From Nannocystis sp. RBIL2 (GTDB taxonomy: Bacteria > Myxococcota_A > Polyangia > Nannocystales > Nannocystaceae), in assembly GCF_026626745.1 (NCBI RefSeq), contig NZ_JAPNJW010000001.1, forward strand, positions 908,311 to 972,310: a stretch of DNA of 64,000 bases, read 5' to 3'. The position numbers and the translations under genes were made by a program. Below the pieces are notes generated by a model. It ran no database searches. It saw only the letters and a program-made list of their open reading frames with translations, and had not been told where the DNA came from. This document shows, piece after piece, positions 30,194 to 53,561 of this stretch. Positions within the stretch are counted from its first letter, which is position 1, and each line of letters starts with the position of its first letter.

Positions 30194-31891
<1,698 letters not shown>

Positions 31892-32075
31892 CGCCCTGCC
31901 CGCTGCCAGCGACAGGCGCTGTCATGTCCGCATGCTCGCGCGCACTCGTCCTCGCCCGTGCCGGCATCTCGCGCGCACCGGCGACGCGAAGCCCGGCCCT
32001 GCCCGCGAGGTCATGAGCGCCGCCGCCGCTCACCTGCCCTGCGTTTCATGACCCAACCACCATGACCGAAAGAGC

Positions 32076-33749: not shown

Positions 33750-35786
33750 GTGCCACGCGCTCGCGCCACGCTCTGCACCTGCCTCGCGGCGTGCCTGTGG
33801 GCCTCGCCCGGCCAGGCCGCGCCCGCGGTGGTCCCCCCGAGCCCGCGGACCCGCGTCGACGCCGTCTATCCGCTCGCCGAGGCGCGCAGCGACGCCGTCG
33901 CGGTCGAGCTGGCCGTCACCGTCGAGGCCGACGGCCGGGTCGGCGCCGTCGAGGTCCTGAAGAGCGGCGGCGCGGCCTTCGACGACGCCGCAGTCGCCGC
34001 GGTCAAGCAGTGGCGGTTCGACCCGGCGCGCCGCGACGACGTCGCGGTGGCCGTCAAGATCCGCGTGCCCTTCAACTTCGCCCCGCCGGCCCAGCCCGCC
34101 GAGGCGCCCGCGGGTGAACCTGCCCCTTCGGCCCCACCCGGACAACCTGGCCCTTCGGCCAGCCCGCCAGGTCCGTCGCAACCTGCCCCTCCGGACAGCC
34201 AGCCGGGCCCGTCTCAACCCGCCCCTTCAGCCGGCCAGCCAGGCCCGTCTCAACCTGCCCCTTCGGCCAGCCCCACCCGACCTGCCCCCTCGGACAGCCA
34301 GCCGGGCCCGTCGCAACCTGCCCCTTCGGCCAGCCAGCCCGAGCCGGTGCTCGACGTCGCCGCGCGCAGCCGCCGGCCGCCGCCGCGGGCCGCCAGCGAC
34401 TTCGTCGTCGAGCGCGACGTCCTCGCCGCCCCGCCGCGGCAGAGCGCCGCCGACATGCTGAGCAGCGCCCCCGGCGTCTACGTCGCGCGGGCCGAGGGCG
34501 AGGCCGTCGCGCACGAGATCACCCTGCGCGGCTTCAACGCGGCGCACGGCCAGGACATCGAGATCACCGCCGGCGCCTTGCCGCTGAACCAGGTCTCGCA
34601 CCTGCACGGCCAGGGCTACGCCGACCTCAACTGGATCGTCCCCGAGACGGTGCGATCGATCCGCGTCACCGAGGGCGTCTACGACCCGCGGCAGGGCGAC
34701 TTCGCGGTCGCCGGCAGCATCGACTTCGACCTCGCCGTCCCGCGCCGCGGCATCCAGCTGCGCAGCACCGGCGGCTCCTTCGCCACCTTCCGCCAGCTCG
34801 TCCTGTGGGCCCCCAAGGGTCAGGACGACGAGACCTTCGCCGCCGCCGCGGTCCGCCGCACCCGCGGCTTCGGCATGAACCGCGGCGGCCTCTCGGGCAT
34901 GGCCATGGGCCAGTTCGCCTTCTCGGCCGCGGGCGGCTGGCGCGGCAAGGTCCACGTCGCCGCCTACGCCGCGCGGGCCGGCCTCGCCGGCGTCCTGCGC
35001 CGGGACGACGTCGCCGCCGGCGCCGTCGGCTTCTACGACAGCTACGGCGACCCCTCGGCCAACAGTCAGTCCGCCTCGGCCGCGCGCGGCCACCTCTCGC
35101 TCGAGCTCCAGCGCCGCGGCGAGGGCGGGGCGGTCACCCGCATGGCCGTGTGGACCGCCCTCGTCGACTTCCACAGCCGCGAGAACTTCACCGGCTACAC
35201 CCAGCGCGGCGTCGTCATGCCGCAGTGGGTCGGCCGCGGCGACCTCATCGAGCAGCAGAACCGCGACTTCGGCGGCGGCATGCGCCTGTCCCATCGGACA
35301 GCCGGCTGGCGCCCCGCCCCGTGGTTCCACGCCGCCCTCGAGGTCGGCGCGGCCGCGCGGATCCACAACATCCAGCAGGCGCAGAACCTCTTGCAAGCGC
35401 CGCAGAACGAGACCTGGGACCGGCGCGTCGACGCCACCGTGCTCGCCAGCGACGTCGGCCTCTACGGCGACCTCGACCTCCGCTTCGGCAAGCGCGTGCG
35501 CTTGCGCGGCGGCGGTCGGGCCGACGTCCTCCACTACGACATCGACGACCGCCTCGGCAACTTCATCGCCCCCTACCAGATCGAGAGCCACCTCGTCGGC
35601 CACCGCCGCACCGCCACCGGCGTGGCCGCCGGCCCGCGCGTCAGCCTCGAGGTCGCGCCTGTCCCTTGGGTCAGCCTGTTCGCCGCCTACGGCCAGGGCT
35701 ACCGCTCGCCGCAGGCGCGCCAGCTCGACGAGGGCGAGCGGGCTCCGTTCGCCAAGGTCCACAGCACCGAGGCGGCGTGCGCATGA
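33750..35786 (+). CDS. TonB-dependent receptor-like protein with N-terminal TonB-C-like domain and Pro-rich repeat linker (N-terminal 678-aa portion)
   Basis: It has a GTG start and signal peptide. The N-terminus carries a TonB C-terminal-like domain (YPLAEARSDAVAVELAVTVEADGRVGAVEVLKSGGAAFDDAAVAAVKQWRFDPARRDDVAV). Six 36-bp PAPSASQPGPSQ repeats follow, then plug-like motifs (MLSSAPGVYVARAEG...ITLRGFNA) and beta-barrel strands. The frame ends at TGA 35784-35786. Confidence 0.65.
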   Translation: MPRARATLCTCLAACLWASPGQAAPAVVPPSPRTRVDAVYPLAEARSDAVAVELAVTVEADGRVGAVEVLKSGGAAFDDAAVAAVKQWRFDPARRDDVAVAVKIRVPFNFAPPAQPAEAPAGEPAPSAPPGQPGPSASPPGPSQPAPPDSQPGPSQPAPSAGQPGPSQPAPSASPTRPAPSDSQPGPSQPAPSASQPEPVLDVAARSRRPPPRAASDFVVERDVLAAPPRQSAADMLSSAPGVYVARAEGEAVAHEITLRGFNAAHGQDIEITAGALPLNQVSHLHGQGYADLNWIVPETVRSIRVTEGVYDPRQGDFAVAGSIDFDLAVPRRGIQLRSTGGSFATFRQLVLWAPKGQDDETFAAAAVRRTRGFGMNRGGLSGMAMGQFAFSAAGGWRGKVHVAAYAARAGLAGVLRRDDVAAGAVGFYDSYGDPSANSQSASAARGHLSLELQRRGEGGAVTRMAVWTALVDFHSRENFTGYTQRGVVMPQWVGRGDLIEQQNRDFGGGMRLSHRTAGWRPAPWFHAALEVGAAARIHNIQQAQNLLQAPQNETWDRRVDATVLASDVGLYGDLDLRFGKRVRLRGGGRADVLHYDIDDRLGNFIAPYQIESHLVGHRRTATGVAAGPRVSLEVAPVPWVSLFAAYGQGYRSPQARQLDEGERAPFAKVHSTEAACA

Positions 35787-36412
35787 GCCCGCTCGGCGGT
35801 CGCCTCCAGCTCAGCGCCGCCGGCTTCGCCACCTTCCTCGCCCAGGACCTCGCCTTCGACCCCGAGGAGGGCCGGCTCGAGAAAGTCGGCCCGACGCGGC
35901 GGGCCGGCGCCGCGGTCCAGCTGATCGCGCGCCCGCTGCCGTGGTTGGTCGCCGCCGGCAGCGTCACCTACGTCCACGCCGTCCTGCGCGCCCCGCCGCC
36001 GGCCACCGCCGAGAACCCCTCCCCGCCCTACGTCCCCGGCCAGCTGCTGCCCTACGTCCCGCCCGTGGTCGTGCGCGCCGACATCGGCATCGACAAGGAC
36101 CTCGCCTTACTCAAGGGCCGCCCGCTCGGCCTGCGCGTCGGCCTCGGCTACTCCTACCTGTCCCCGCGGCCATTGCCCTACGGACAGTTCGCCGACCCCG
36201 TCCACCTCCTCGACGCCAGCGCCGCGGTGCGTTGGTCGGTCGTCGAGGTCGGCGTCGAGGCCTTCAACCTGCTGGCCCGTCGCTGGGCCGCCACCGAGTA
36301 CAACTTCGTGTCCGACTGGGGCACCCGCCCGATCCCCTCCCTCCTGCCCGCCCGCCACTTCGCCGCCGGCCCTCCGCTCAGCGTCATGGGCACCCTCACC
36401 CTGCACTTCTAG
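35783..36412 (+). CDS. C-terminal beta-barrel portion of the TonB-dependent receptor (separate frame, ATGA overlap)
   Basis: ATG at 35783 overlaps the upstream TGA. It encodes 209 aa of alternating-amphipathic barrel strands ending in the canonical C-terminal aromatic (...MGTLTLHF). This is either a split gene or a frameshifted single receptor. Confidence 0.5.
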   Translation: MSPLGGRLQLSAAGFATFLAQDLAFDPEEGRLEKVGPTRRAGAAVQLIARPLPWLVAAGSVTYVHAVLRAPPPATAENPSPPYVPGQLLPYVPPVVVRADIGIDKDLALLKGRPLGLRVGLGYSYLSPRPLPYGQFADPVHLLDASAAVRWSVVEVGVEAFNLLARRWAATEYNFVSDWGTRPIPSLLPARHFAAGPPLSVMGTLTLHF

Positions 36413-36469
36413 CCGCCTGTCCTCTCGGACTTCCCCGCGACTCGCGCTCGCAGCCGAAGTTTTCGCCCC

Positions 36470-36760
36470 GCATCGCCTTCCGACTCCGCGCGCCTCTCCG
36501 CCGCCTGCCCTCGGAGCCCGTTCCCGACCACCGCTTCCCCACGCGCATCGCCGCCCGACTCCGCGCCCTCTCCGCCGCCTGCCCTCGGAGCCCGTCCCCG
36601 AACGTCGCTTCCCCTCGCGCATCGCCGCCCGCTCCACGCCTCACATGAGTCGCCGCCCTCTCCATCGGGCCCGCCGCACCGACCCTCATCGCTCCTCACC
36701 CCGCCTCGCCTCATCAGCTGTCCCTTCGCACCTGTCCTCTCGCACCTGTCCCTTGTTACC
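36470..36760. repeat. tandem roughly 70-bp direct repeats (2.5 copies) plus three CTGTCC half-site units between receptor and lipoprotein genes
   Basis: The unit gcatcgcc...ccgcctgccctcggagcccgt(t/c)cccga...cgcttcccc repeats at 36470, 36541 and 36611. It is followed by cagctgtcccttcgcacctgtcctctcgcacctgtcccttg. Confidence 0.6.
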
Positions 36761-36773
36761 GGCCCTTTCGCCC

Positions 36774-37502
36774 ATGTCCCTCCGACCAGCCATGCTCCTC
36801 CTGCTCTGCGCCGCCTGCGGCGCCACCGGCGAGCCGGCCTTTCAGGCCCCGCTGCGGGCGCGAGGGGCCGCGGCCGAGCTGACCGCGGGCGCCTGGACAG
36901 TGACCCTCACGCGAGCAGAAGTCGGCCTCGGCCCGCTCTACCTGTGCGCCACCGCGGCCGCCTCCTCCGAGCTGTGCGCCACCGCGGCCGCCGAGTTCGC
37001 AGCGGTCGCCCCCGTCGACCTGCTCGACCTCGGCCCGCAGCCGCTCGGCGAGCTCGACGTCCTGCCCGGCCAGGTCCGCTCGGCCATGCTCGACTACGGC
37101 GTCACCTGGCTCAAGACGCAGGCCAAGCCGGGCGCTCAGGACGGCGCGCCGGGCCGGCGCGCCGCCCGGTTCGCCGGCACGGCTGTCTCTGCGGACATGT
37201 CCTTCGAGTTCACCGCCGACCTCGACGTCGCCCCCGTGCTCCGCGGCAGCCGCACCATCGAGGGCCTGCGGATCGGCCCCTTCGACCTCGACGTCGGCGG
37301 CGCGCTCGACGTCACGATCGACGGCGCCGCCTGGTGGGCCGGCGTCGAATTCGACGCCCTCGCCGCGCTCGGCCCCGGCCCGCACGACCTCGCCGCCCTG
37401 GCCGCCGAAGATCCGGCCTCGCCCGCCGCCGACGCCCTGGCCGCCGTCCGCTTCGCCATGATCGCCGTCCCGCCGCGGTTCGCCTGGACCGCCGAGGAAT
37501 GA
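36774..37502 (+). CDS. hypothetical lipoprotein in the TonB-system cluster
   Basis: MSLRPAMLLLLCAACGATG gives a lipobox. The protein is 242 aa, and the exbB start follows 5 nt after its stop. Confidence 0.55.
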   Translation: MSLRPAMLLLLCAACGATGEPAFQAPLRARGAAAELTAGAWTVTLTRAEVGLGPLYLCATAAASSELCATAAAEFAAVAPVDLLDLGPQPLGELDVLPGQVRSAMLDYGVTWLKTQAKPGAQDGAPGRRAARFAGTAVSADMSFEFTADLDVAPVLRGSRTIEGLRIGPFDLDVGGALDVTIDGAAWWAGVEFDALAALGPGPHDLAALAAEDPASPAADALAAVRFAMIAVPPRFAWTAEE

Positions 37503-37506
37503 CCCC

Positions 37507-38196
37507 ATGACCCCGATCGACGCCCTCCAGCAGCTCTTCCTCCGCGCCGGCGCCGGCTGGGTGCTGTGGCTGCTCGGCCTGCTCTCGCTCGTCAGCGTCG
37601 CCCTCACCGTCGAGCGCTGGTTGGTCCTGCGCGCCCGCGGCGGCGACCTGCGCGTGCTCGCCGGCCGCGTCGCGGCCCTCCTGCAGGCCGGCGACCGCGA
37701 CGGCGCGCTGCGCCTGCTCGCCGCCTCGCCGAGCGTCGCCGCGGCGATCGCCGCCGCCGGCCTGCGCCTCGCCGACCGCGGGCCCAAGGCCGCCGAGTAC
37801 GCCATGCAGAGCGCCCTCGCCCTCGAGCGCGGCCAGCTCGAGCGCGGCCTTATCTTCCTCGGCACCCTCGGCAACAACGCCCCGTTCGTCGGCCTGCTCG
37901 GCACCGTCATCGGCGTCATCGCCGCCTTCGAGGAGCTCGGCCACGCCGCCCCCGGCCACGGCGGGGGCACCGGCGCCGCCTCGCAGGTCGCCTCCAACGC
38001 CGTCATGTCGAGCATCGCCGAGGCCCTCGTCGCCACCGCCGTCGGCCTCCTCGTGGCCCTCCCCGCAGTCGCCGCCTACAACGCCTTCCAGCGCAAGATC
38101 ACCTCGCTGTGCCAGGGCAGCGAGGCGCTCACCAACCTCGTCCTCGCGTACATGTCCGATACGACAGGCCCCGAAGGCCAGCCGGAGGTGCGCTGA
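37507..38196 (+). CDS. exbB: MotA/TolQ/ExbB proton-channel family protein
   Basis: Three TM helices with the conserved GLLGTVIGVIAAF...AEALVATAVGLLVALPAVAAYN TolQ/ExbB core. There is a GAGGAA RBS. Confidence 0.85.
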   Translation: MTPIDALQQLFLRAGAGWVLWLLGLLSLVSVALTVERWLVLRARGGDLRVLAGRVAALLQAGDRDGALRLLAASPSVAAAIAAAGLRLADRGPKAAEYAMQSALALERGQLERGLIFLGTLGNNAPFVGLLGTVIGVIAAFEELGHAAPGHGGGTGAASQVASNAVMSSIAEALVATAVGLLVALPAVAAYNAFQRKITSLCQGSEALTNLVLAYMSDTTGPEGQPEVR

Positions 38197-38636
38197 TGGC
38201 CGGCCACAGCAGCGGCGACCCGGGCGGCATGATCGTCGGCATCAACGTCACGCCGATGGTCGACATCGTCCTGGTGCTGCTCATCATCTTCATCGTCACC
38301 GCCAAGATCATCGTCACCCCCGCGGTCGAGATGGACCTGCCGGAGGCCAGCACCGCCGGCGAGGTCCAGGTCGTCCTGTCGGTGATCGTCCCCGAGCGCG
38401 GCGCCACCCTCGTCGACGGCGAGCCGATCGCCGGCGACGACGAGCTGATGACCCGCGCCGCCGCAGTGCGCGCCCGCAGCCCGCAGGTCCGCGCCGTCAT
38501 CCACGCCGACGGCGAGGTCCCCCACCGCCGCGTGATCGCCACCATCGACGCCCTCCAGCGCGGCGGCGTCTACCGCGTCGCCTTCGCCACCCTGTCCCCC
38601 GCGCCAGGCCCCGCCGGCCAGGAGGCGACGCCGTGA
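38196..38636 (+). CDS. exbD: biopolymer transport protein ExbD/TolR
   Basis: ATG overlaps the exbB stop (TGATG). The protein has a single N-terminal TM helix (INVTPMVDIVLVLLIIFIV) with the conserved Asp and a periplasmic domain, 146 aa. Confidence 0.85.
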   Translation: MAGHSSGDPGGMIVGINVTPMVDIVLVLLIIFIVTAKIIVTPAVEMDLPEASTAGEVQVVLSVIVPERGATLVDGEPIAGDDELMTRAAAVRARSPQVRAVIHADGEVPHRRVIATIDALQRGGVYRVAFATLSPAPGPAGQEATP

Positions 38637-38647
38637 CCCGCTCGTCG

Positions 38648-38880
38648 CATCACATGTCCTTCGGGACAGCCTCCGGCGCGCCCGACACGGCTCATCACCT
38701 GTCTCTCGGGCCATCCTCCCCCGCGCCCGCACGAGCTCTGCCGCGAGCCCTCGCCCGAGCGAGCGCCGCCACGCCTCATCGCCTGTCCTTCGGGCCATCC
38801 TCCGCCGCGCGAGCTCAGGCGCCCGCGCGAGCCCTCGCGCGAGCGAGTGCCGCCGCTCCCCACCTGTCCTTGAAAAAATC
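38648..38880. repeat. tandem roughly 84-bp repeats, each headed by a CATCAC(C/A)TGTCCTTCGGG hairpin-family unit, in the exbD-tonB spacer
   Basis: The units are catcacatgtccttcgggacagcctcc, catcacctgtctctcgggccatcctcc, ctcatcgcctgtccttcgggccatcctcc and cacctgtccttgaaaaaa. Units 2 and 3 are full 84-bp tandem copies. Confidence 0.6.
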
Positions 38881-38898
38881 CTCAGTGGAGGTCCGCGC

Positions 38899-39735
38899 GT
38901 GACTCGGCCGGGCATCGCCGCCCAGGTGTTCGCCGCCGCTGCGCCGCCGGCCTCGCGGCGGCACCACGCGATCATCGTCGCCGTCGTCCTGCACCTCGGC
39001 GTCGCCGTGATGATCTTGCGGGCCCAGCCCACTCTGGAGACCTGGAGCGCCACCATGGCCGCGCGCGTCCACGACGAGCTGACCCGCCTGCAGCTCGCCG
39101 ACGTCGAGCGCACCGAGCCTACGCCTCCGCCGCCCGAGCCGACCCCCTCCGAGCCCCCGCCGCCCACCAGCGAGCCGGCCCCCGCCGTCGCCGCGACCCC
39201 ACCCGCCCCCGCGCGACCGGCCCGGCCCGCCCCCGCGCGCGCCGGCAAGGTCGTCGCCGCCCCGCCGGGCGCCCTCGACCTCACCGGCGACGTCGTCGTC
39301 GTCGGCAACGCCAGCGCCTACGTCGGCGGCGCCACCAGCTCGACCGGCACCGGCACCAAACCTGTCCCGAACGCCAGCTCGGGGCCGTCGCCCGCGCAGT
39401 CGCCCACGCCGCCCGCGAACCCCCCGCCTGCCTCCCCCGGCACCATCGATCGCTCGCGCTCGGTCGCCCTCGCCAGCGACGAGTGGAACTGCCCCTGGCC
39501 GCTCGAGGCCGACGGCCTCGCGCTTGACGAGCAGGTCGCCACGATCCGCGTCGCCGTCGACGCCCGCGGCGTCGTCGAGTCCGCCGAGCTCGTCACCGAC
39601 CCCGGCGACGGCTTCGGCGCCGCCGCCCTCGCCTGCGCCCGCCGGACCCGCTTCACCCCCGCGCTCGACCGCGACGGCCGCCCGGTCCGCGCCCGCTCGC
39701 CTGCCATTCGCGTCCACTTCACCCGCGACCGCTGA
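38899..39735 (+). CDS. tonB: energy transducer TonB
   Basis: GTG start with a GGAGGT RBS. It has an N-terminal TM anchor (AIIVAVVLHLGVAVMIL), a Pro-rich spacer (EPTPPPPEPTPSEPPPPTSEPAP) and a C-terminal TonB-C domain (IRVAVDARGVVESAELVTDPGDGFGAAALACARRTRFTPA). Confidence 0.8.
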   Translation: MTRPGIAAQVFAAAAPPASRRHHAIIVAVVLHLGVAVMILRAQPTLETWSATMAARVHDELTRLQLADVERTEPTPPPPEPTPSEPPPPTSEPAPAVAATPPAPARPARPAPARAGKVVAAPPGALDLTGDVVVVGNASAYVGGATSSTGTGTKPVPNASSGPSPAQSPTPPANPPPASPGTIDRSRSVALASDEWNCPWPLEADGLALDEQVATIRVAVDARGVVESAELVTDPGDGFGAAALACARRTRFTPALDRDGRPVRARSPAIRVHFTRDR

Positions 39736-39783
39736 TTCCGCCTGCACTTCGGGACATGTCCTGAAGACCACTCCATCGCCGCC

Positions 39784-40102
39784 CATGCTCGACCCGCAGC
39801 CACCGACCCCGAAGCCGCGCCGCCTCGCCCCCCTGGGCGTCGCGCTGTTGCTGCTCACGTGTCGCTCGGAGCGGGCCGGCGCTGACGACTGCGCCGTCAT
39901 CCTCGACCGGATCGTCGCCCTCGAGCTCGCCGAGCAGGGCTACCGCGATCCCGAGCTCACGCGGCGCAAGCAGCAGGAGTTCGCGCGGCGGTTCGTCCCC
40001 GAGCTGCAGCGCTGCGAGGGCCTCTCGCTCCCGCCGGGCGCGCGCGAGTGCATCGCGCGGGCCGGCTCGGCCGAGGAGATCAGCCACGTCTGCCTGCGCT
40101 GA
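39784..40102 (+). CDS. small hypothetical lipoprotein
   Basis: MLDPQPPTPKPRRLAPLGVALLLLTC gives a lipobox, 106 aa with 4 Cys, and lies downstream of tonB. Coding bias is moderate. Confidence 0.45.
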
Positions 40103-40253
40103 CGCGCGTCCACGCGCCGCGCTGCGGCCCCGCGCTCGCCTCCTCCGTTCACCTGTCCTTTCAGACAGGCCTCACGCGCCGCCGCTGCGGCCCCCCGGCC
40201 CCACGGACCGCGGTTGACAACGCGATCGCGCGGGCCGCAGACTGCGGATCGCC

Positions 40254-40952
40254 ATGGGGAAGCCGGCCACCGCGCTCGTCGTCGCGCTCGTGCTCGCCGC
40301 CTGCAAGTCGGAGCCCGGGGACGAGAGCACCGGCAGCGGCAGCGACGGCACGACCACGACCACGACCTCCGCCGCTGCCACGACCCCGGGGCCCACCACC
40401 GCCGGGCCCACCACCGCCGAGCTCACCACCACGTCGACCACCTCCGTCGACACCGAGACCTCGACCACCGGCGTCGACGAGGCGCTGTGCGCCGACTACT
40501 GCGCCGACGTCATGACGAACTGTCTCGACCCGCAGGCGCAGTACCCGAACGCCGACAGCTGCAAGCGCGCCTGCGCCAGCTTCCCCGCCGGTGCGCGCGG
40601 TGACGTCTCGGGCAACAGCTACGCCTGTCGCCGCTACCACACCGACGCCGCCGTCATGGACGCGGCGACCCACTGCGTGCACGCCGGCCCGAGCGGCGGC
40701 GGCGCCTGCGGCGACAACTGCGACGGCTTCTGCGCCCTCGCGGTGTCCGTCTGCCCGGGCGAGCACCCGAGCCTCGACGCCTGCCTGGCCTCCTGCGCCG
40801 GCTTCACCGACGACGAGGAGTTCGACGTGGGCGACGTCGCCGGCGACACCCTCGCCTGCCGCCTCTACCACCTCACCGTCGCGGCCACCGGCGAGGCCGA
40901 CGCCGCAGTGCACTGCCCGCACACCCTCCAGGGCTCCCCGCCCTGCATGTAA
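40254..40952 (+). CDS. Cys-rich lipoprotein with internally duplicated SGN(S)xACRxYH...HCxH module (paralog A)
   Basis: It has the lipobox (LVLAAC), a T-rich linker, about 20 Cys, the repeated motifs SGNSYACRRYH...THCVHAGPSGGGACG and TLACRLYHLT...VHCPHT, and a C-terminal SPPCM. Confidence 0.6.
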   Translation: MGKPATALVVALVLAACKSEPGDESTGSGSDGTTTTTTSAAATTPGPTTAGPTTAELTTTSTTSVDTETSTTGVDEALCADYCADVMTNCLDPQAQYPNADSCKRACASFPAGARGDVSGNSYACRRYHTDAAVMDAATHCVHAGPSGGGACGDNCDGFCALAVSVCPGEHPSLDACLASCAGFTDDEEFDVGDVAGDTLACRLYHLTVAATGEADAAVHCPHTLQGSPPCM

Positions 40953-40970
40953 AGACATGTCCCTTCAACC

Positions 40971-41759
40971 ATGCCGGTTCACGCCGCCACGCAAGGCCCT
41001 CGCATGACCTCTCGCGCCTTCCTTCCCCTCCTCGTCACCCTCCTGTTCCCCGCCTGCTTCGACGACTCGCGCGGTGACGACACCGGCTCGACCGTGAGCA
41101 CCACGGTCATGACCACGACCGCGACCCAGGTCAGCGGCGACGTCACGACCACCACGACGACCGGCACCTCCACGACCGACTGGACCTCCGGCGAGCCCAC
41201 CACCTCGACCACCACCAGCGACGTCGATCCGCTCACCAGCACCAGCGACCCGACCACCGGCACCTCGAGCACCGGCGGCGACACCAACGTCGGCTGCCAG
41301 ATGTACTGCGCGGCGATGATGGGCAGCTGCACCGGCACCAACGCCCAGTACCCGAGCAACGAGAGCTGCCTCGGCGCCTGCGGCGGCCTCCCGCCGGGCT
41401 CGCCGGGCGAGACCTCCGGCAACTCGCTGTCCTGCCGGGCCTACCACGCCGGCATGGCCTCGATCGATCCGGGCGTCCACTGCATCCACGCCGGCCCCAG
41501 CGGCGCCGGCGCGTGCGGCCAGAGCTGCGAGGGCTTCTGCGCCATCGCCACCTCGATCTGCCCGACCGAGCACCCGAGCCCCGGCGACTGCATGGCCACC
41601 TGCGCCAACTTCATGGACACCGAGCCGTACAACACCGAGGACGCCGCCGGCAACACCCTCGCCTGCCGCCTCTACCACCTCACGATCGCCTCCACTGGCC
41701 CGGCCGAGGCCCAGGTCCACTGCGGCCACACCATCGAGGCCTCGCCGCCCTGCATGTGA
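40971..41759 (+). CDS. Cys-rich lipoprotein paralog B
   Basis: It has the same architecture and motifs as 40254..40952 (SGNSLSCRAYH...VHCIHAGPSGAGACG, TLACRLYHLT...VHCGHT, C-terminal SPPCM). It is a tandem paralog 18 bp downstream. Confidence 0.6.
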   Translation: MPVHAATQGPRMTSRAFLPLLVTLLFPACFDDSRGDDTGSTVSTTVMTTTATQVSGDVTTTTTTGTSTTDWTSGEPTTSTTTSDVDPLTSTSDPTTGTSSTGGDTNVGCQMYCAAMMGSCTGTNAQYPSNESCLGACGGLPPGSPGETSGNSLSCRAYHAGMASIDPGVHCIHAGPSGAGACGQSCEGFCAIATSICPTEHPSPGDCMATCANFMDTEPYNTEDAAGNTLACRLYHLTIASTGPAEAQVHCGHTIEASPPCM

Positions 41760-41860
41760 CTTGAAGGGCAGGTCCTCCGGGGCATGCTCCGGAGGACAGG
41801 CTCTTCAGGACATGCTCCCAAGGCCAGGCCCCGCGCCCGCTCCCGACCGCAGAGCGCCCC

Positions 41861-41912
41861 AAAAAGCGAAGGCCGCGGCCGCCGCTCCACCGAGCGTCGG
41901 CCCGCGGCCTTC
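41861..41912 (-). terminator. intrinsic terminator for the vWA lipoprotein gene
   Basis: An 11-bp perfect stem gaaggccgcgg/ccgcggccttc with a 22-nt loop sits 14 bp after the minus-strand stop. On the minus strand it is followed by CGCUUUUUGGGG. Genes are convergent here. Confidence 0.6.
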
Positions 41913-41925
41913 GTCACTCCCGTCC

Positions 41926-44082
41926 TCAGCGGGCCGACGGCCACGCGTCGGGCCCGGACGCCGGGGTGCGGCGCACCGGGTTGCGCGGCTGCTCGTAGCG
42001 CGAGCAGAACTTGTCCCACAGCGACAGCACGCGGGTGACCTCGGGGTCGTTCATCCCCTGGGCCATGTCGCGCAGGTCGGCCTTGCCCTGCTCGCACTGC
42101 TGCCAGCCGTCGGCGTCGATCCAGGCTCCGGCGATCGGCGCCGTGCCGATCGGCTGCGGCCGCGAGGCCATCAGCGCCAGGCGGTCGGCCCACGCGATCA
42201 GCAGGCGGCCCTTGCGGATGTTGTAGGCCTCGCGCTCGATCTCCGCCAGCTGGAACGCCCGCTCCTCGACCATCTTCTGCCCCGACTCCGGGTCCTCGTA
42301 CTCGATGGTCAGCATGATCTGGTCCTGCGGCCGCAGCTTCTTGCCGCGCGCCATCAGGTCGGACAGGAACAGCTGCGACGTGTTGGCGAAGTAGTGGATC
42401 GCCTGCACGTCCTCCTTCACCGCCGAGCTCTCCTCGCCGTAGAACACGTTCATGCGCAGCGACGGCGGCAGGTGCAGCTGGAAGTGGACGTCCATCGCCG
42501 TCGTCTCGAGCAGCGAGATGAAGCGCGGACCGAACACCGCGTCGACCTCTGCCTCCGAGCCGAGGAACACGTAGGCCCCCTTGCCGCGCTCGGTCAGCTT
42601 GTCGAGCAGCGCGTCGTTGAACTCGGTGCCGACGCCGACGCCCGACAGGCGGATCTTCCGCTCGTCGTAGTACTTGGCGACCATCGACATGGTCCGCGGG
42701 TCGGTGTTGCCGGTGTTGGCGAGCGCGTCGGTGACCAGCACCACGCGGTTGTTGTAGGTGTGCTGGTAGCCGCGGTCGGCCAGCTCGTAGCCGCGGGTCA
42801 GGCCCGCGTGCACGTCGGTCGACCCGCGCGGCTTCATGCGCTCGATCGCCTTCTCGAGCACCTCCGGCTTGTCGCGCCCGACCACGAAGTTCTCGACCGG
42901 CACGCACACCTCGTGATCGAACAGCACCACGTTGACGAGGTCGCCGGTCTTGAGCTCGCCCATCATCTTCCGCATGCCCCGCTTGAGGTAGTCCATGCGG
43001 CCCTCGTCGCTCATCGACCCCGAGCGGTCGACCACGAACGTCAGGTTGCCGTTGCGCCGCGCCTGCTTGTCGACCGGGCGCCCGCGGATCGCCAGCGCCA
43101 GGTTGTAGATCCCGTCCTGCTTCGGATCCTTGGCGATCTCGGGCAGCACCGAGAAGTCGTCGGTCTGCGCCACCTCGGCCGTCTCGAACGAGAAGTAGTT
43201 GAGAAGCTCGTGCGGCCGGATGTGCTCGAGCGGCACCGGCAGGAACTTGTCGATGGCGAAGATCACCCGCTGCGCCGACGACAGGCTCATCGTGTCGTCG
43301 TTCGACAGGTACGTCGCCTGCCCCCAGTCGCTGTACTGCGCCTCGCCGTCGCCAACCTGCTGGACCGGCTCGTACGCCACCGAGTTGTCGTCCTCCGCCT
43401 CGTCGCGGGCCACCTGCGCCTCGGCCGGCGCCGCCGCGCTCGCTCCCGGCCGCTCCTCGGCCGCCTTGTCGCGCCCGCGGTCCTTCTTCTTCTCGGCCTT
43501 CTCGGCCCTGCGCACGTCGGCCGCCGCCTCGCCGCGAGTGTTCGCCGACTTCGACGCAGTCACCGGCGGCGGCGGAGGAGACTGCGGCGGCGCTGCGCCG
43601 GCATCGAACCCGCTGCTGCTGCCGCGACCGGCCGCGCCCTTGCCGAGCGCCCCGGCCGACGGCGTCGTCTGGATCGGCGCCGGCGAGGACGGAGGCGCCG
43701 AGCCGCCGCCGTAGGTCACCTGCTTGTACTTCGGCTTCGGCGGCGCCGGCTTCTTGATCGGCTTGGGGATCGCCCCGCCCGAGGGGCCACCGGACGCGAT
43801 GGCGCCGCCGCTCGGCCCGTAGCACTGATCGATCCGCGACACCATCTTCGGCAGCGCCGCCAGGTTCGGCGGCGGCGCGTCGCTGCGGTTGCGCGGCGGG
43901 TGCGGACGCGCCGAGAACGTGTGCGGCGCCGCCTCGTAAGCCACGTCCCCTTGCCCGTGCGCCAGCATCACGTTGTTGTTGCCGTCGGGCGTCACCGTGC
44001 CGATCGGGGTCACCGAGCTCGAGCGGCACTGCGTCAGCGCGAGCGGGGTCGCCAGGAGGATCCACTTCATCCACGGGTTCAT
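41926..44082 (-). CDS. von Willebrand factor A (vWA) domain lipoprotein
   Basis: Met at 44082 with a GGAGA RBS. It has the lipobox MNPWMKWILLATPLALTQC, a long Pro/Ala/Lys-rich low-complexity region, and a vWA domain with a MIDAS-like DxSxS (NLTFVVDRSGSMSDEG) and a downstream TD...D. Confidence 0.75.
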   Translation of the reverse strand: MNPWMKWILLATPLALTQCRSSSVTPIGTVTPDGNNNVMLAHGQGDVAYEAAPHTFSARPHPPRNRSDAPPPNLAALPKMVSRIDQCYGPSGGAIASGGPSGGAIPKPIKKPAPPKPKYKQVTYGGGSAPPSSPAPIQTTPSAGALGKGAAGRGSSSGFDAGAAPPQSPPPPPVTASKSANTRGEAAADVRRAEKAEKKKDRGRDKAAEERPGASAAAPAEAQVARDEAEDDNSVAYEPVQQVGDGEAQYSDWGQATYLSNDDTMSLSSAQRVIFAIDKFLPVPLEHIRPHELLNYFSFETAEVAQTDDFSVLPEIAKDPKQDGIYNLALAIRGRPVDKQARRNGNLTFVVDRSGSMSDEGRMDYLKRGMRKMMGELKTGDLVNVVLFDHEVCVPVENFVVGRDKPEVLEKAIERMKPRGSTDVHAGLTRGYELADRGYQHTYNNRVVLVTDALANTGNTDPRTMSMVAKYYDERKIRLSGVGVGTEFNDALLDKLTERGKGAYVFLGSEAEVDAVFGPRFISLLETTAMDVHFQLHLPPSLRMNVFYGEESSAVKEDVQAIHYFANTSQLFLSDLMARGKKLRPQDQIMLTIEYEDPESGQKMVEERAFQLAEIEREAYNIRKGRLLIAWADRLALMASRPQPIGTAPIAGAWIDADGWQQCEQGKADLRDMAQGMNDPEVTRVLSLWDKFCSRYEQPRNPVRRTPASGPDAWPSAR

Positions 44083-44382
44083 GCGCGTCTCCTTGGGCCG
44101 GGGCACCGGCCAGCTTGACAGCCTCGTGCCTCGGCGTGCAGCCCCACAACGCCGCCGCCGTGCCCGCGCTGACACCCCGCGGACACGCCCCGCGAGCGCC
44201 CCGGCGCGGCCGCGACCGCCGGGCGGTTCCGCCCCGGGCGCCGCGTCGCGCTCGCTGTTCACATGTCCCGAAGGACAGCTCACACCTCCGCCGCCGAACG
44301 CCGAACAAACTCACCGCCGCCCCGCCGCAGCCCCCTGGCGTCCCGGCGGGGCTCGCGTCTACCATCCGAGGCTGCTGCGTCC

Positions 44383-45462
44383 ATGCTCGGCCCGACCTCC
44401 GCGCTGCTCCTCCTGTCGCTGGCCGGACCGCCCGCGATCGAGTGGCGCGCCCCTGCCGGCTGCCCGACCCGCGACGACGTCCTCGAAGCTCTGGCCGCCC
44501 TCACCCGGCCGCCCGACCTCGAGGGCGTGCGCGTGCGCGGCGTCGTCCGCCGGGTCGCCGGGCGCTACGAGCTGCGGCTCGACATCCACACGCAGAGCCT
44601 CACCCAGCGCCGGGTCGAGCGCGCCGACGCCTGCGAGTCGCTCGACGGCGCCGCGGCCCTGATCATCGCCATCGCCATCGACCCGCTCGAGTTCGCCAAC
44701 CAGCTCGCGCCCCCGGCCCCTGAACCGCAGCCCGAACCCGAGCCCACCCCTCCGACCCCCGTCCCGCCGCCGCCCGAGGTCGCCGCGCCCGCGCCCCTCG
44801 ATCCCGAGCTCCCGCCGGCCAGCGATCCCCCGCCAGCGCCGCCCCCCGCTCCGCCCTCGCGTCCGTCCCCGCCCCGAGCCGCGCGCGCCCACAAGCTCAG
44901 CGTCCTCCTTCGCGTCGACGGGGCGATCGACGCCGGCATCACCCCGACGATCGCCGGCGACATCGGCGGCGCGTTCGGCTTCCTCTACCACCGCCTCCGC
45001 GTCGAGGCCGTCGCCCACTACATGCCGGCGCGCCCGCTCGACTACTTCAACGCCGAGGTCGGCTTGGACGCCAAGGTCGGCATGGTCGCCCGTTGGGCCC
45101 TGGGGGTCCGCGGTTGCGGCCGGTTTCTCCCCGGCGCCCTCGAGATCCCCGTGTGCCTCGGCCTCGAGGGCGGCCAGTTCCTCGCCGAGGGCGCCGGCAT
45201 CACCATCGACCGCCGACAGGCCCGCCCGCCCTGGTTCGCAATCCTGCTCGGACTCGGCCTCGTGTGGTCGCCGCACCCGCGGATCGGCCTCGGAGTCCGC
45301 ACCGACTTCGTCATCGCCCCGCTGCGGGCCCAGTTCACCGTCAGCGACGAACTCGTCTTCATCACCGGGCCGGTCGGCGTGCGCTTCGGAGGCGGCCTCG
45401 AGATTCGTCTCGGGCCCGGCGCGCGGCATGACGGATCGACCTCGGCCCGGCCAAAGAAATAA
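44383..45462 (+). CDS. hypothetical secreted protein, possible outer-membrane beta-barrel, first gene of an ECF-sigma operon
   Basis: It has the signal peptide MLGPTSALLLLSLAGPPA, a Pro-rich linker (PAPEPQPEPEPTPPTPVPPPPE) and a C-terminal 170 aa of alternating hydrophobic beta-strand pattern. Its stop abuts the sigma-factor start. Confidence 0.5.
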   Translation: MLGPTSALLLLSLAGPPAIEWRAPAGCPTRDDVLEALAALTRPPDLEGVRVRGVVRRVAGRYELRLDIHTQSLTQRRVERADACESLDGAAALIIAIAIDPLEFANQLAPPAPEPQPEPEPTPPTPVPPPPEVAAPAPLDPELPPASDPPPAPPPAPPSRPSPPRAARAHKLSVLLRVDGAIDAGITPTIAGDIGGAFGFLYHRLRVEAVAHYMPARPLDYFNAEVGLDAKVGMVARWALGVRGCGRFLPGALEIPVCLGLEGGQFLAEGAGITIDRRQARPPWFAILLGLGLVWSPHPRIGLGVRTDFVIAPLRAQFTVSDELVFITGPVGVRFGGGLEIRLGPGARHDGSTSARPKK

Positions 45463-46038
45463 GTGACTGCCGTGCTGAAGCTTCAGCCGCCCATATCTGG
45501 CCCCGAGGAGCACGCGCAGCGCGGGTTCGCCACCGTGTACTACGCTTACTTCGACCTCGTCTGGCGGATCCTTCGCCGCCTCGGGGTCCCTTATGACCAG
45601 CTCGAGGACGCCGCCCAGGACGTGTTCCTCGTGCTGCACCGCCGCCTACCCGGCCTGGACCCGCAGATCTCGCTGCGGAGCTGGCTGTTCGGCACCGCGC
45701 GGCGGGTCGCCAGCGACTTCCGCCGCGGTCTTCGGCGCCATGAGCGCCGGATCCAGGCATTCGCCGTCGTCCACACCCATCAACCGCGCGAACGCGACGC
45801 CGAGCGCGCCGAGGCCGCCGATTTCGTGCAACGCTTCCTCGACAGCCTCGACAACGACAAGCGCATGGTCTTCATCCTCGCCGACCTCGAGGGCTTCACG
45901 GCGCCGGAGATCTCCCAGGCCCTCGATGTCAAATTGAACACCGTTTATTCGCGTCTGCGGGCCGCTCGGGCTGAGTTCGAGCGGGCCATCGCCGAGACCG
46001 AACGAGCGGATGGGAGGCAAGCAGCATGGAACCGCTGA
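45463..46038 (+). CDS. RNA polymerase ECF-type sigma-70 factor
   Basis: Region 2 (YYAYFDLVWRILRRLGVPYDQLEDAAQDVFLVLHRRLPGL) and region 4 HTH (DKRMVFILADLEGFTAPEISQALDVKLNTVYSRLRAARAE). It has a GTG start. Confidence 0.85.
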   Translation: MTAVLKLQPPISGPEEHAQRGFATVYYAYFDLVWRILRRLGVPYDQLEDAAQDVFLVLHRRLPGLDPQISLRSWLFGTARRVASDFRRGLRRHERRIQAFAVVHTHQPRERDAERAEAADFVQRFLDSLDNDKRMVFILADLEGFTAPEISQALDVKLNTVYSRLRAARAEFERAIAETERADGRQAAWNR

Positions 46039-46736
46039 GTTCGGAGGCGCGGGCGCGCCTGGCCGCATTTCGCAGCGCCGAGTCGCCCGACCGCGCGATC
46101 GCCGACCGAGTCCTCGCCGCGCTCGAGCAGCGCGTCGAGGAGGGCGGCGGCGACGATCTCGACGACGAAGCACCTTCTCGCTCGCGCCTCGCCCCGCGGG
46201 TCCTCGCCGGCTTCGCCTTGGCGGCCGGCGTCCTGCTGGCCCTGACCTGGGCAGTCATGAAGGGCGGCGAGGCGCCGCAGACCCACGTCGCCGCCCCGTA
46301 TCAAGCCCGCGAGGGCGACGCGACTCAGACCGCCGAGCCCGTCCAGCGCCCCGATCCCGCCCGCGCCTCCGCGCCCGATCCGGCGCCCGAGGTCGCACCC
46401 GAGGCGCAGGCCACCGACAAGCCTGTCCCTGCGGACACCTCCAAGGCGCGCCGCCCTGCGCGTGAGGACACCGTCGCCGCCGAGGTCGACCTGCTGCGGC
46501 GGGCCAAGCTGGCCGCGCCCGCCGAGCGCCTGCAGTTGATCGAGGAGCACGCCCGGCGGTTCCCCGGTGGCATTTTGGCCGCCGAGCGCAGCCTGCTCGA
46601 AATCGAGGCCCGCTGCGCCCTCGGCCAGCGCGACGCCGCCCGCGAGCTGGTCGCCAGCTTCCCGCGACGTTTTCCGGGCTCGCCTCTGGTCGACCGGGCG
46701 GCCACCCTCTGTAATGGATCGGCCGCGCAGCCCTGA
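46026..46736 (+). CDS. putative anti-sigma factor (single-pass membrane)
   Basis: It overlaps the sigma gene by 13 nt. It has an N-terminal cytoplasmic helix, one TM segment (VLAGFALAAGVLLALTWAV) and a periplasmic Ala/Pro-rich region, which is the typical ECF partner layout. Confidence 0.55.
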   Translation: MEPLSSEARARLAAFRSAESPDRAIADRVLAALEQRVEEGGGDDLDDEAPSRSRLAPRVLAGFALAAGVLLALTWAVMKGGEAPQTHVAAPYQAREGDATQTAEPVQRPDPARASAPDPAPEVAPEAQATDKPVPADTSKARRPAREDTVAAEVDLLRRAKLAAPAERLQLIEEHARRFPGGILAAERSLLEIEARCALGQRDAARELVASFPRRFPGSPLVDRAATLCNGSAAQP

Positions 46737-46748
46737 CCCCCGCGGCGG

Positions 46749-48335
46749 GTGAGACGACCCGTGCCCACTTCCCGAACGCACCGCAGCCCGATCGCCTCCG
46801 CGGCGAGGGCCTGCCTCGCCGTGGTTCTCACCTGTCCTTTCGTACACCTCGGCTGCCTCCTCGATCCCAGCCCGCTGGGCGAGCTCCCGGGCGACACCGA
46901 CGGCCCTGACACCGTCGAGCTCGATACCCTCGTCGTCACCTCGCAGCACGTCGACGACACCACCGTCGGTCCGCTGCCGACCACCACCGCCGAGCCGGGC
47001 ACCACCGGCGACCCGCCCGACGGCACCACCGGTGAGCCCGTCACCACCGGCGACGATCCGCCGCCGGAGACCGGCTGCATCGACGGCGGCGCCTGCGAGC
47101 AGCTCGACGTCCTGTTCGTCATCGACAACTCCGGCACCATGGGCGAGGAGCAGAGCCAGCTCGCCGACAGCTTCCCTGCCTTCGTCTCGCTGCTGCGCGG
47201 CCTCAGCGACGCCAACGGTCAGCTCGTCGGCGCCGACGTGCACATCATGGTCACCACCACCGACGTGCCGCACCCGCTGTGCACGCCGTTCGAGAAGCCC
47301 GACTACGACGCCGCCGACGGCCAGCCGATCGACACCCCGTGCACCGACCGGCTGGCGCGGTTTACCGGCCTCGGCGCCGATCCGCCGGTGATGTCCGAGA
47401 TCTGCACCTCGCGCTGCTCCGAGGCCGCCCCCTCGATCCCCACCGATCCGTTCATCCGCTTCAGCCCCACCAGCCACAACATCATCGACCCTGACGGCAT
47501 GGGCGACCCCGCGGCCGACGCCCTCGCCTGCATCGGCCCCCAGGGCATCGACGGCTGCGGCATGGAGTCGCCGCTCGAGGCCATGCTGCGCGCGCTCGAC
47601 CTCGAGGCGCGGTGGAACATCGGCGAGCGGCCCTTCTTGCGCCCCGGCGCCCCGCTGGCGGTCGTCCTCGTCACCGACGAGACCGACTGCTCCACCCTCA
47701 ACTTCGCCTACTTCGACCCCAAGCTGCACGACGACCCCGAGTTCAGCAAGTACTGGCCGTCCCACCCGAGCAGCGGCCAGCGGACCGAGCCCACCAGCGC
47801 CGTGTGCTGGAACGCCGGCATGACCTGCGCCGACGACGACGACGACGGCGAGTACGAGTGGTGCATGTCCGAGGACAAGCACGTCCTCCAGCCCGTCGCC
47901 CGCTACACCGAGGCCCTCGCCGGCCTGCGCCAGCTCCACGGCAAAGAAGTCGTCATGCTCGTCCTCGGCGGCGTCCCTCAGGTCACCGAGCACAACCAAG
48001 CCCCTCCGTTCGAGCCCCTCGTCGGCGGCGTCGACGCCCTCGTCTACCGCGACTGGCAGCCCGACGACATCCTCCCCGGCGACAGCGACACCCCCGCCGA
48101 CAAGCAGTTCGAGTTCGGCATCGGCCCCGGCTGCGTCGGCCCCGCCGGCCAGGCCGTCCCGCCCGGGCGGATCCAGGAAGTCTGCCAGTCGCTCGACATC
48201 CCCGACGACCCCGACACCGCCGTCAACGAACGCGCCATGCGCTGCTGCATCGAGTCCGTCTGCGACAGCGACTACACCCCCGCCCTCGGCTGCCTCGCCG
48301 GCATGCTGCAGCCGACCCTCCACGCCATGCCCTGA
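46749..48335 (+). CDS. hypothetical secreted vWA-like protein, last gene of the ECF operon
   Basis: It has a signal peptide, a T/P/G-rich linker and a DxSxT context (LFVIDNSGTMGEEQSQL) with many Cys pairs. The N-terminal signal-peptide codons contain a hairpin-family unit (ctcacctgtcctttcgtacacctc). Confidence 0.6.
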   Translation: MRRPVPTSRTHRSPIASAARACLAVVLTCPFVHLGCLLDPSPLGELPGDTDGPDTVELDTLVVTSQHVDDTTVGPLPTTTAEPGTTGDPPDGTTGEPVTTGDDPPPETGCIDGGACEQLDVLFVIDNSGTMGEEQSQLADSFPAFVSLLRGLSDANGQLVGADVHIMVTTTDVPHPLCTPFEKPDYDAADGQPIDTPCTDRLARFTGLGADPPVMSEICTSRCSEAAPSIPTDPFIRFSPTSHNIIDPDGMGDPAADALACIGPQGIDGCGMESPLEAMLRALDLEARWNIGERPFLRPGAPLAVVLVTDETDCSTLNFAYFDPKLHDDPEFSKYWPSHPSSGQRTEPTSAVCWNAGMTCADDDDDGEYEWCMSEDKHVLQPVARYTEALAGLRQLHGKEVVMLVLGGVPQVTEHNQAPPFEPLVGGVDALVYRDWQPDDILPGDSDTPADKQFEFGIGPGCVGPAGQAVPPGRIQEVCQSLDIPDDPDTAVNERAMRCCIESVCDSDYTPALGCLAGMLQPTLHAMP

Positions 48336-48414
48336 AGGACATGCTCCACAGGCCATGTCCTCGGCGACATGGCCTTCAAGCATGCCCTTCAGACCATGCG
48401 CACGGAAGCGACCC

Positions 48415-48640
48415 CCGACTCACCGCCCGGCGACCGCCAGCCCGCCTCGCGCCGTGATGTCCACGCGCCGCCGCCCCCCGACCGCCAGCCGGCGCCGCGC
48501 CGTGATGCCCACGCGCCGACACCCCCCGATTGCCAGCCCGCGCCGCGCCGTGATGCTCACGCGCCTCCGCCCCACGACCGCCAGCCCTCACCGCGCCACG
48601 ACGCCGCGCCGCGCCACGACCCGCAGTCCCTCGCCGCGCG
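48415..48640. repeat. about 3.5 tandem copies of a 60-bp direct repeat
   Basis: The unit gaccgccagcc(c/g)gc(c/g)ycgcgccgtgatg(y)ycacgcgcc...cccc(c) repeats head to tail between the vWA-like gene and element copy 2. Confidence 0.6.
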
Positions 48641-48650
48641 GAGATGCCAC

Positions 48651-48909: not shown

Positions 48910-48924
48910 CGCGAACCAGAGCAC

Positions 48925-53536: not shown

Positions 53537-53561
53537 AAGGAGCACGAGTCATGAAGCGCCA

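Follow-up and report, generated by a model that had tools for sequence, protein, structure and literature searches.

A 64,000-nucleotide (nt) stretch of Nannocystis sp. RBIL2 DNA (contig NZ_JAPNJW010000001.1, positions 908,311 to 972,310; hereafter called the window) contains a family of very short palindromic units with the core TGTCC-N4-GGACA, which is apparently undescribed and specific to the Nannocystis lineage. We consider it fairly probable that these units are a lineage-specific repeat resembling the repetitive extragenic palindromes (REPs), that they are read by a putative protein and expand by slippage or recombination, and that their composite copies act as hairpins at the 3′ ends of transcripts. 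The most unusual features of the family are a constraint at the nucleotide level on copies inside genes and a possible strand orientation.

The core was found in 12 exact copies, whereas 0.02–0.03 copies are expected from dinucleotide shuffles of the window. When at most one mismatch over the ten arm positions was allowed (near-consensus units), 40 units were counted, compared to a shuffle mean of 1.7 and a shuffle maximum of 5, indicating that the repeat family is real and far above chance. The original prediction of this family, made from the letters of the DNA, had named the shuffled expectation as the frequency to be exceeded, and the counts within the window lie far beyond it. The density of near-consensus units corresponds to about one site per 1.6 kb (0.62 per kb).

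The spacing between the arms is equally strict. In a scan with the arms TGTC and GACA, a spacing of six bases yielded 25 copies, while spacings of 0–5 and 8–15 yielded none or one each; five copies had a spacing of seven, every one of them in a coding sequence (CDS). Control palindromes showed no comparable spacing peak. Between the five-base arms TGTCC and GGACA, N4 was the sole enriched spacing. The consensus proposed earlier, CTGTCC-N4-GGACAG, stands in its core, but not in its full strict form, of which the window has only three exact copies; CTGTC-N6-GACAG occurs nine times. The unit that had drawn attention to the family is present as claimed and reads catcaca-TGTCC-ttcg-GGACA-gcctcc, with its core at 38655-38668. 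Nearly all positions that had been listed are likewise occupied, by full units, arrays or half-units, namely the sites at 1714, 29409, 38655, 38700, 38784, 39743-39770, 40154, 44264, 54948, 55048 and 55103, the five-unit array at 55963-56119, the half-site array at 36718-36760, and the CATG-tiled arrays at 19970-20025, 22651-22678, 28290-28456, 41771-41826, 48328-48400 and 57444-57484. Only isolated GGACAG/GACAG half-sites are found at 51663.

Two other readings of the motif were rejected. Half-sites are barely enriched (TGTCC 80 and GGACA 70 vs about 58 each from base composition, by our own arithmetic), and the unit is the whole palindrome rather than its half; a DNA-uptake-sequence-like reading was therefore discarded. 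The LexA box, CTGT-N8-ACAG, has an outer geometry equal to that of the repeat unit; a reading as LexA boxes was rejected on the basis of copy number and location.

The conserved core comprises 14 bp, or 16 bp including the -1/+1 pair, and the information content drops to background beyond about 4 nt of flank. The -1/+1 positions of 19 intergenic TGTC-N6-GACA copies, counted by eye, were C...G in eight, A...T in six and mixed in five. In the C...G form, the 5′ flank is usually CACC or AACC and the 3′ flank GCC or TCC, and the unit therefore has an orientation. The asymmetric 5′ flank (C/A)AC(C/A) is carried by many copies, and the 3′ flank consensus of the aligned units is GCC, TCC or TG. Of the flanks described in the original prediction, CAC(C/A) on the 5′ side is informative (0.7–0.9 bit per position), and the 3′ side is weaker. 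The A...T form can tile without a spacer, resulting in a CATG every 14 bp. The loops are heterogeneous, mostly pyrimidine-rich tetramers on the C-rich strand; TTCG, CGAA and GAAA were each counted twice, GCAA and GTGA once each and GAAG four to five times, the remainder being mixed pyrimidine-rich tetramers.

According to the orientation of flanks and loops, the arrays are built head-to-tail, both in the window (38648-38870 and 55963-56119) and in the loci L001, L003, L109 and L111. The gap between exbD and tonB holds four head-to-tail units inside an 84-bp module, the five-unit array at 55963-56119 has periods of 31–38 bp, and periods of 14, 17, 18, 21 and 27 bp occur in metagenome contigs with 70–77% GC. 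The architecture had been called BIME-like, after the bacterial interspersed mosaic elements (BIMEs); this does not hold for head-to-tail arrays without alternation.

What is conserved in the units is their sequence. With four stem pairs fixed, variants of the fifth pair disrupt pairing (C5/A10 22 times, T5/A10 three times), and among the 88 copies with a variant pair 3/12, a Watson-Crick pair is restored in only four. No compensatory substitutions were found in the five stem pairs. A purely structural RNA is disfavored by this analysis, and so is the label of a stable tetraloop. The idea of stable UUCG or GNRA tetraloops is likewise not supported by the loops themselves, of which UUCG and GNRA are a minority, or by folding, as single units are no more stable than shuffled sequence (z -0.3 to -1.0). 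Strong folding is limited to composite, tiled copies. Two of these, both in convergent gaps, are exceptional: the palindrome at 48325-48402 reaches -41.9 kcal/mol (z -6.5) and the one at 57436-57505 reaches -34.9 kcal/mol (z -5.6). The arm sequence and the exact 4-base spacing are conserved, and not the ability to pair as such, which argues for recognition by a protein or for recent copying rather than for selection of a hairpin.

Position relative to genes and constraint within coding sequences

Coding and intergenic DNA of the window were separated using our own codon-score gene map, in which most genes are backed by Pfam hits. Near-consensus units are densest in convergent gaps (6.3 per kb), followed by co-directional gaps (about 3), divergent gaps (0.95) and CDS (0.29), compared to a chance level of 0.027 per kb. 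Per kb, the units are about 10-fold enriched outside genes, in line with the difference between intergenic and coding density that the original prediction had proposed to check. Many copies lie 2–20 nt past stop codons and in convergent gaps, and some are found in 5′ regions and inside genes. This placement, densest 3′ of genes in convergent and co-directional gaps, is REP-like, as had been suggested, and the ranking of gap types is the same as that reported for REPs in a survey (PMC3733652). It was also claimed that almost all copies are intergenic, which was contradicted by the gene map: 16 of the 40 near-consensus units (40%) and five of the 12 exact copies are within predicted CDS, leaving 24 and seven, respectively, in intergenic DNA.

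Copies inside genes exceed the number that codon usage would produce. The window has 17 coding copies, compared to 1.6 expected after codon shuffling, and the independently annotated loci L171-L174 have 14, compared to 1.9, so that coding copies are over-represented 8–10 times relative to the codon-shuffled expectation. The majority of them share one phase and encode (E/K)-P-V-x-x-D-(T/I/M). Where the rest of the motif is in frame, the Pro codon that completes the palindrome was the rare CCT in five of five cases (baseline 5–8%), and the preceding codon of coding copies ended in T in five of seven, compared to 3.6% overall. The excess over codon shuffling and the use of CCT indicate that, even within coding DNA, the palindrome is kept or newly created at the nucleotide level. 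A pair of units in a kinase linker and the unit at 46424 keep their position across species within otherwise variable linkers.

Repeats in coding DNA were also noted outside this set of copies. Large arrays of units with periods of 27 and 18/21 bp occupy 1978-2190 and 4013-4380 of L111, a metagenome contig with 77.5% GC; they are in frame within an open reading frame (ORF) of 2201 amino acids on the opposite strand and encode the peptide repeats GLSEGTG and AVPEDRS. In the window, an array of 5.7 copies with a 36-bp period (34143-34339, in CDS 33750-35786) encodes a Pro-rich QPAPSAS/QPGPSQ linker; its DNA, AACCTGCCCCTTCGGCCAGCC, resembles a decayed unit, and its indels relative to L002 are multiples of 9 bp. 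At 36774-36792, the conserved block cccATGTCCCTCCGACCAGCCATGCTC suggests that the start codon of a lipoprotein-like gene is the ATG around 36774 (MSLRPAMLLLLCAAC...) and not the one at 36792. With the start at this position, some CATGTCC half-sites are simple Met-Ser start contexts.

Occurrence in Nannocystis, turnover and orientation

The ExbB protein encoded in the window is 99% identical to that of N. pusilla Na p29, 96% to that of N. punicea and 95% to that of N. radixulma. Three syntenic Nannocystis loci contain 0.92–1.16 near-consensus units per kb, compared to 0.62 in the window, and four independent Nannocystis loci, found via paralogs of the ADYC-domain protein of the window, contain 0.10–0.43 per kb. 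Since the motif is enriched in all Nannocystis loci examined, at unequal densities, it appears to be present throughout the genus, with the window as a hot spot. Extrapolated from local densities of 0.1–1.2 per kb, a genome of 12–13 Mb would contain roughly a thousand or more copies. Zero units were detected in L004-L008, L175 and L176, a set made up of six loci from other Myxococcota (four containing a homolog of ExbB and two metagenomic) and one from Stenotrophomonas. When metagenomes were scanned for two exact units 11–41 nt apart, many contigs with 70–77% GC and further units were recovered, one of them carrying 29 units within 9 kb. Viral contigs scanned with CACCTGTCC-N4-GGACAG gave 41 matches, all single or double at chance level and without enrichment, and there is thus no link to phages.

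The number of units at orthologous gaps varies between sister species. In the window, the head-to-tail cluster of the exbD-tonB gap starts with the flagged unit CATCACA-TGTCC-TTCG-GGACA-GCCTCC (38648-38675, plus strand), which lies 19 nt past the exbD stop codon. The remainder of the cluster (38696-38870, plus strand) lies entirely within the 84-bp tandem module and consists of the units TGTCTctcgGGCCA (38700-38713) and TGTCCttcgGGCCA (38784-38797) and the decayed half-unit CACCTGTCC (38861-38869), all on the plus strand. The gap holds about four units in the window, compared to about five in L002, 12 in L001 and seven in L003, beside ExbB proteins that are 95–99% identical and flanking coding DNA that is 79–95% identical. 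In N. punicea (L001 11090-11880), tandem copies of a module of about 90 bp, each with one unit, have lengthened the gap to about 730 bp. At 38865-38885 of the window, an unusually A/T-rich stretch, TTGAAAAAATCCTCAG, stands where the last, decayed unit would have its right arm, immediately before the ribosome-binding site GGAGG of tonB; the other species have an intact or differently decayed unit there.

Indels elsewhere also coincide with units. An intergenic segment of 301 bp (36429-36729) is present in the window and absent from N. pusilla Na p29, and CCTGTCC half-units are found at both of its ends. At its left edge lies the unit TGTCCtctcGGACT (36418-36431, plus strand), 6 nt past the stop of gene 35777-36412, and at its right edge an array of left half-units with a 14-bp period, CTGTCCCTTCGCAC repeated (36718-36760, plus strand). 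The segment itself is built of 74-bp tandem repeats (tandem repeat 36469-36660). Conversely, the window lacks a 30-bp stretch found in N. pusilla Na p29 which is exactly one unit. Other units stand out as conserved islands in gaps that have diverged among four species: those at 44264, 40154 and 29409 and the GGACATGTCC cores at 39743-39770 and 40954.

GC skew of the window is negative in every 4-kb bin (-0.04 to -0.21), irrespective of gene direction, which places the whole window within a single replichore whose strand bias is unusually strong. The skew is about 0.05–0.1 stronger where genes are on the plus strand. Nearly all oriented units of the window have their C-rich form on the plus strand. 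In high-GC contigs with negative skew, 25 clusters were C-oriented and three G-oriented, compared to three C-oriented and six G-oriented clusters in those with positive skew. Where gene direction and skew are in conflict (six co-directional gaps), five gaps follow the skew and one follows the gene. The orientation of the units along the skew is suggestive of a replication-strand bias; this statistic comes from few independent clusters with rough gene calls, made on array-masked sequence for the metagenomes, and the extra Nannocystis loci are too poor in units to add to it. A replication-strand bias is known for the single-strand transposition of IS200/IS605-type elements (PMC6006769).

Comparison with known systems and possible origin

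A scan of the whole window against Rfam at the gathering threshold gave no match, a literature search returned no published link between Nannocystis and REPs, palindromic or intergenic repeats, and the REP survey of Di Nocera et al. (2013; PMC3733652) lists no myxobacteria. No described equivalent was thus found, in agreement with the original prediction, which could not match the family to a known element. Like the REPs and BIMEs of Enterobacteria and Pseudomonas and the surveyed GTAG- and CGTC-tagged palindromes (PMC3733652), the Nannocystis units are short palindromes of high density that occur in clusters, are enriched outside genes, mostly in convergent and co-directional gaps, with occasional intragenic copies, and turn over rapidly between related genomes. 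However, REP stems are about 20–40 bp long, whereas the Nannocystis core has 14–16 bp, and no GTAG/CGTC tag was found beside the stem in the 62 aligned units. BIMEs alternate in orientation with defined linkers, whereas the Nannocystis arrays are head-to-tail with variable periods of 14–38 bp. Furthermore, coding copies are frequent here and constrained at the codon level. A tblastn search with E. coli RayT, a REP-associated tyrosine transposase (RAYT), gave no credible match in the window and 0.9 Mb of related and metagenomic DNA, the best match (E = 0.06) being on an unrelated contig with 35% GC. Membership in the RAYT/REP family, as had been considered, is thus not supported, as the tag is missing and no RAYT homolog was found in the 0.9 Mb searched.

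A match in sequence is provided by the LuxR-type operator of CviR/CsuR from Chromobacterium, a 16-bp palindrome with the consensus CTGNCC-N4-GGNCAG and the ideal form CTGNCCNNNNGGNCAG / CTGTCCGATAGGACAG (PMC12114271). Its geometry is identical, and its sequence nearly identical, to that of the C...G subclass CTGTCC-N4-GGACAG, which shows that a dimeric helix-turn-helix protein is able to read such a site. Yet the CviR operator is found at few promoters per genome, upstream of regulated genes, whereas the Nannocystis units, at the density given above, lie mainly 3′ of genes, in tandem arrays and inside genes. In a general Pfam scan of approximately 40 proteins of the window, no gene of the LuxR family came to notice.

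Two further families share individual traits with the repeat. The dRS3/NIME system of Neisseria consists of 20-bp ATTCCC-N8-GGGAAT units in hundreds of copies, which flank intergenic mosaic arrays; dRS3 is a presumed recombinase target and organizes variable intergenic repeat arrays. Both dRS3 and the Nannocystis unit are very short inverted repeats with fixed spacing and conserved arms, but they differ in sequence, spacing and host lineage, and no associated phage or recombinase was seen in the Nannocystis data. The mycobacterial interspersed repetitive units (MIRUs) are non-palindromic, 40–100 bp long, and form arrays of variable number in intergenic DNA and in frame. Variable tandem arrays in both intergenic and coding DNA of a GC-rich genome are common to both families, including the in-frame periods of 18, 21 and 27 bp in L111; the Nannocystis core, however, is a 14-bp palindrome that is also dispersed singly.

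In the REP-like reading that we favor, the unit would most likely be the recognition site of a putative sequence-specific protein, either a transposase or recombinase or a DNA-binding dimer, since arm sequence and spacing are conserved and not mere pairing. Units would accumulate in tolerant DNA, mainly on the 3′ sides of genes and also in frame in coding linkers, and would gain and lose copies locally within head-to-tail arrays, with slippage or unequal recombination between units as the most likely mechanism. Spacer-free A...T-flanked units build palindromes of 40–70 nt at convergent gene ends, and these composite palindromes would be the copies most likely to function as bidirectional 3′-end hairpins that stop or protect transcripts. 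Several points weigh against this reading. The assignment of window DNA to CDS or intergenic gaps depends on our own codon-score gene caller, and the units have no T-tract, which bears on the proposed role as 3′ hairpins. No protein partner or mobilizing enzyme was found, the search for RAYT having covered 0.9 Mb of related and metagenomic DNA, a small span next to a genome of 12–13 Mb. The four independent Nannocystis loci are 2–6 times poorer in units than the window, so that the family may be regionally clustered. Finally, single units conserved in position and the conserved units of coding linkers are as compatible with a functional binding site as with a selfish repeat, or more so.

A possible, though not likely, alternative, raised in the original prediction as a regulator-binding repeat, is that the units are operator-like arrays for a dimeric helix-turn-helix protein, such as a LuxR/GerE-type solo, another abundant regulator or a nucleoid protein, and are selected rather than propagating. 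Their spread into genes and their fixed positions would then reflect selection for binding. The shared geometry of the C...G subclass and the ideal CviR/CsuR operator (PMC12114271) is consistent with this, as are the strict spacing, the arms conserved without compensatory change, the weak hairpins of single units, the islands conserved in four species, the bending of synonymous codons in CDS and the regionally uneven density. However, one near-consensus site per 1.6 kb is far more than in any known regulon, and divergent gaps, the only ones made up of promoters alone, are the poorest in units while convergent gaps are the richest. Moreover, tandem arrays of 4–12 or more units differ in number between sister species at the same gap, their periods of 14–38 bp are out of helical register, and many copies are decayed. 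Somewhat unlikely in our estimation is the more far-reaching idea that the 14-bp palindrome is the genome-wide site of a new Nannocystaceae system, based on either a single-strand transposase or recombinase or a chromosome-structuring protein. The former would seed oriented units on one replication strand; for the latter, sites would be selected even in genes. Either candidate would account for the strictness of the spacing and the conservation of the arms, and also for the CCT codon in five of five cases, the apparent orientation along the skew and the in-frame arrays of large proteins.

Classical REPs, for which a RAYT (HUH-Y1) gene at another site of the Nannocystis genome would provide mobilization on single-stranded DNA, would account for the distribution over gap types and for the turnover, and an intrinsic orientation (5′ CACC, pyrimidine-rich loop) that tends to follow GC skew is expected for elements processed on the lagging-strand template (PMC6006769). 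We nevertheless regard this as improbable, given the short untagged core, the head-to-tail arrays that differ from BIMEs, the frequent coding copies and the negative RAYT search in 0.9 Mb; moreover, the skew statistic carries the limits stated above. That the units are merely terminators or RNA-stabilizing hairpins, made alike by convergent selection, agrees with the many copies shortly past stop codons and in convergent gaps and with the very strong folding of the composites, but is very unlikely: single units fold like shuffles and have no T-tract, and a terminator scan of 36400-56300 gave five terminator-like sites, compared to 4.0 expected, and in no case was the stem formed by a unit. Convergent structural selection would also yield diverse stems and compensatory changes, not one arm sequence, and copies occur in 5′ regions and genes as well. 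We give next to no credence to a compositional or coding artefact of a genome with 72% GC. Pro-rich linkers and Met-Ser starts do account for some copies, including the QPAPSAS linker array (34143-34339) and the CATGTCC start plus Ser near 36774; as a general explanation, however, this is refuted by the dinucleotide and codon shuffles, by the enrichment of the N4 spacing alone and by the absence of the motif from other GC-rich Myxococcota loci.

Catalogues of small dispersed palindromic repeats mostly concern Gamma- and Alphaproteobacteria, and we found none described for the Myxococcota, whose genomes of 10–13 Mb are heavily mined for natural products. Such a dense family is a practical marker for strain typing and, at the same time, introduces errors into assembly and annotation in the form of spurious ORFs, displaced start codons and collapsed arrays. 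It is also a likely driver of the variation in intergenic and linker length between species. If a dedicated protein indeed targets the palindrome, the family would offer a new model for the spread and tolerance of repeats, built around the nucleotide-level constraint in genes and the possible orientation along the replication strand.

Further units and neighboring features of the window

All exact coding units are on the plus strand. Two are located in the linker of a Ser/Thr kinase (31531-31583), where they read EPVPTDT and EPVPSDT and keep their positions in four species. The unit at 35287-35300 (CDS 33750-35786; peptide LSHRTA) is likewise kept in four species. The remaining two are found at 46424-46437 (CDS 46026-46736; peptide KPVPADT) and in the gamma-glutamyltranspeptidase CDS at 21627-21640 (peptide PVLGDM). 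Past the stop codon of the kinase gene, at 31892-31950, lies a different GC-rich palindrome, tagcgccctgcccgctgccagcgacaggcgctgtca, which is not a member of the family.

In the first half of the window, the A...T-flanked single unit ATGTCCccgcGGACAT (1713-1728) is located in a 51-bp convergent gap, 2–3 nt past the stop codon (1709-1711) of gene 245-1711. A degenerate unit and an exact unit (20012-20025) lie between two minus-strand genes at 19970-20025, and two abutting 14-bp units, TGTCCtttcAGACA | TGTCCtttgCGCCA, lie where the gamma-glutamyltranspeptidase and AcrB-type genes converge (22651-22678). The degenerate CATG-linked cluster at 28290-28456 (units at 28290, 28415 and 28443) is placed between the 3′ end of gene 28511-29395 and the start of an OEP-HlyD-AcrB operon and shows many unit-sized indels relative to L002. 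The exact unit at 29409-29422 (minus strand), 14 nt upstream of the predicted start of the minus-strand gene 28511-29395, is the sole copy with the opposite flank orientation; its position is kept in L001, L002 and L003.

Downstream of tonB, a 49-bp gap contains the palindrome CTTCGGGACATGTCCTGAAG (39743-39770), in which two half-units meet at CATG and whose core ACATGTC is kept in four of four species. The unit TCACC-TGTCCtttcAGACA-GG (40154-40167, plus strand) follows the stop codon of the upstream gene and precedes a conserved promoter-like block with TTGACA, and its position is kept in four species, as is the half-palindrome AGACATGTCC (40954-40963) immediately past a stop codon. Adjacent paralogous genes at 40254-40952 and 41004-41759 have no Pfam hit, share about 71% DNA identity and both encode Thr/Pro-rich repeat linkers; the short gap that separates the two genes has hardly changed across four species. 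A degenerate array with a 14-bp period, GGTCCtccgGGGCA|TGCTCcggaGGACA|GGCTCttcaGGACA|TGCTCccaaGGCCA, occupies the convergent gap at 41771-41826. The exact unit TCACA-TGTCCcgaaGGACA-GCTCAC (44264-44277, plus strand) is a conserved island of the four-species alignment in a divergent gap.

Further downstream, the composite palindrome at 48326-48398 consists of five tiled units with one CATG per 14 bp in a convergent gap, just past the stop codon of gene 46821-48335. It is directly followed, in the same long gap, by a C-rich 48/96-bp tandem repeat of 3.6 copies without a unit core (48423-48654). The one-mismatch unit TGTCGtctcGGACA (50878-50891, plus strand) is found between two minus-strand genes, and three dispersed plus-strand units, exact at 54948 and 55048 and with one mismatch at 55103, lie past the stop codon of a DUF1552 gene (54948-55116). 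The five-unit array at 55963-56119 (plus strand), C(G/A)CC-TGTC(C/T)-GAAR-(C/A)GACA-GCC, is in a convergent gap by an HxlR-type regulator gene. A second composite palindrome, with a 17-bp stem centered on TGTCCtctgCGACA, fills 57444-57484 of a 73-bp convergent gap, and the one-mismatch unit AACC-TGTCCataaAGACA (60689-60702, plus strand) is located in a long divergent gap.

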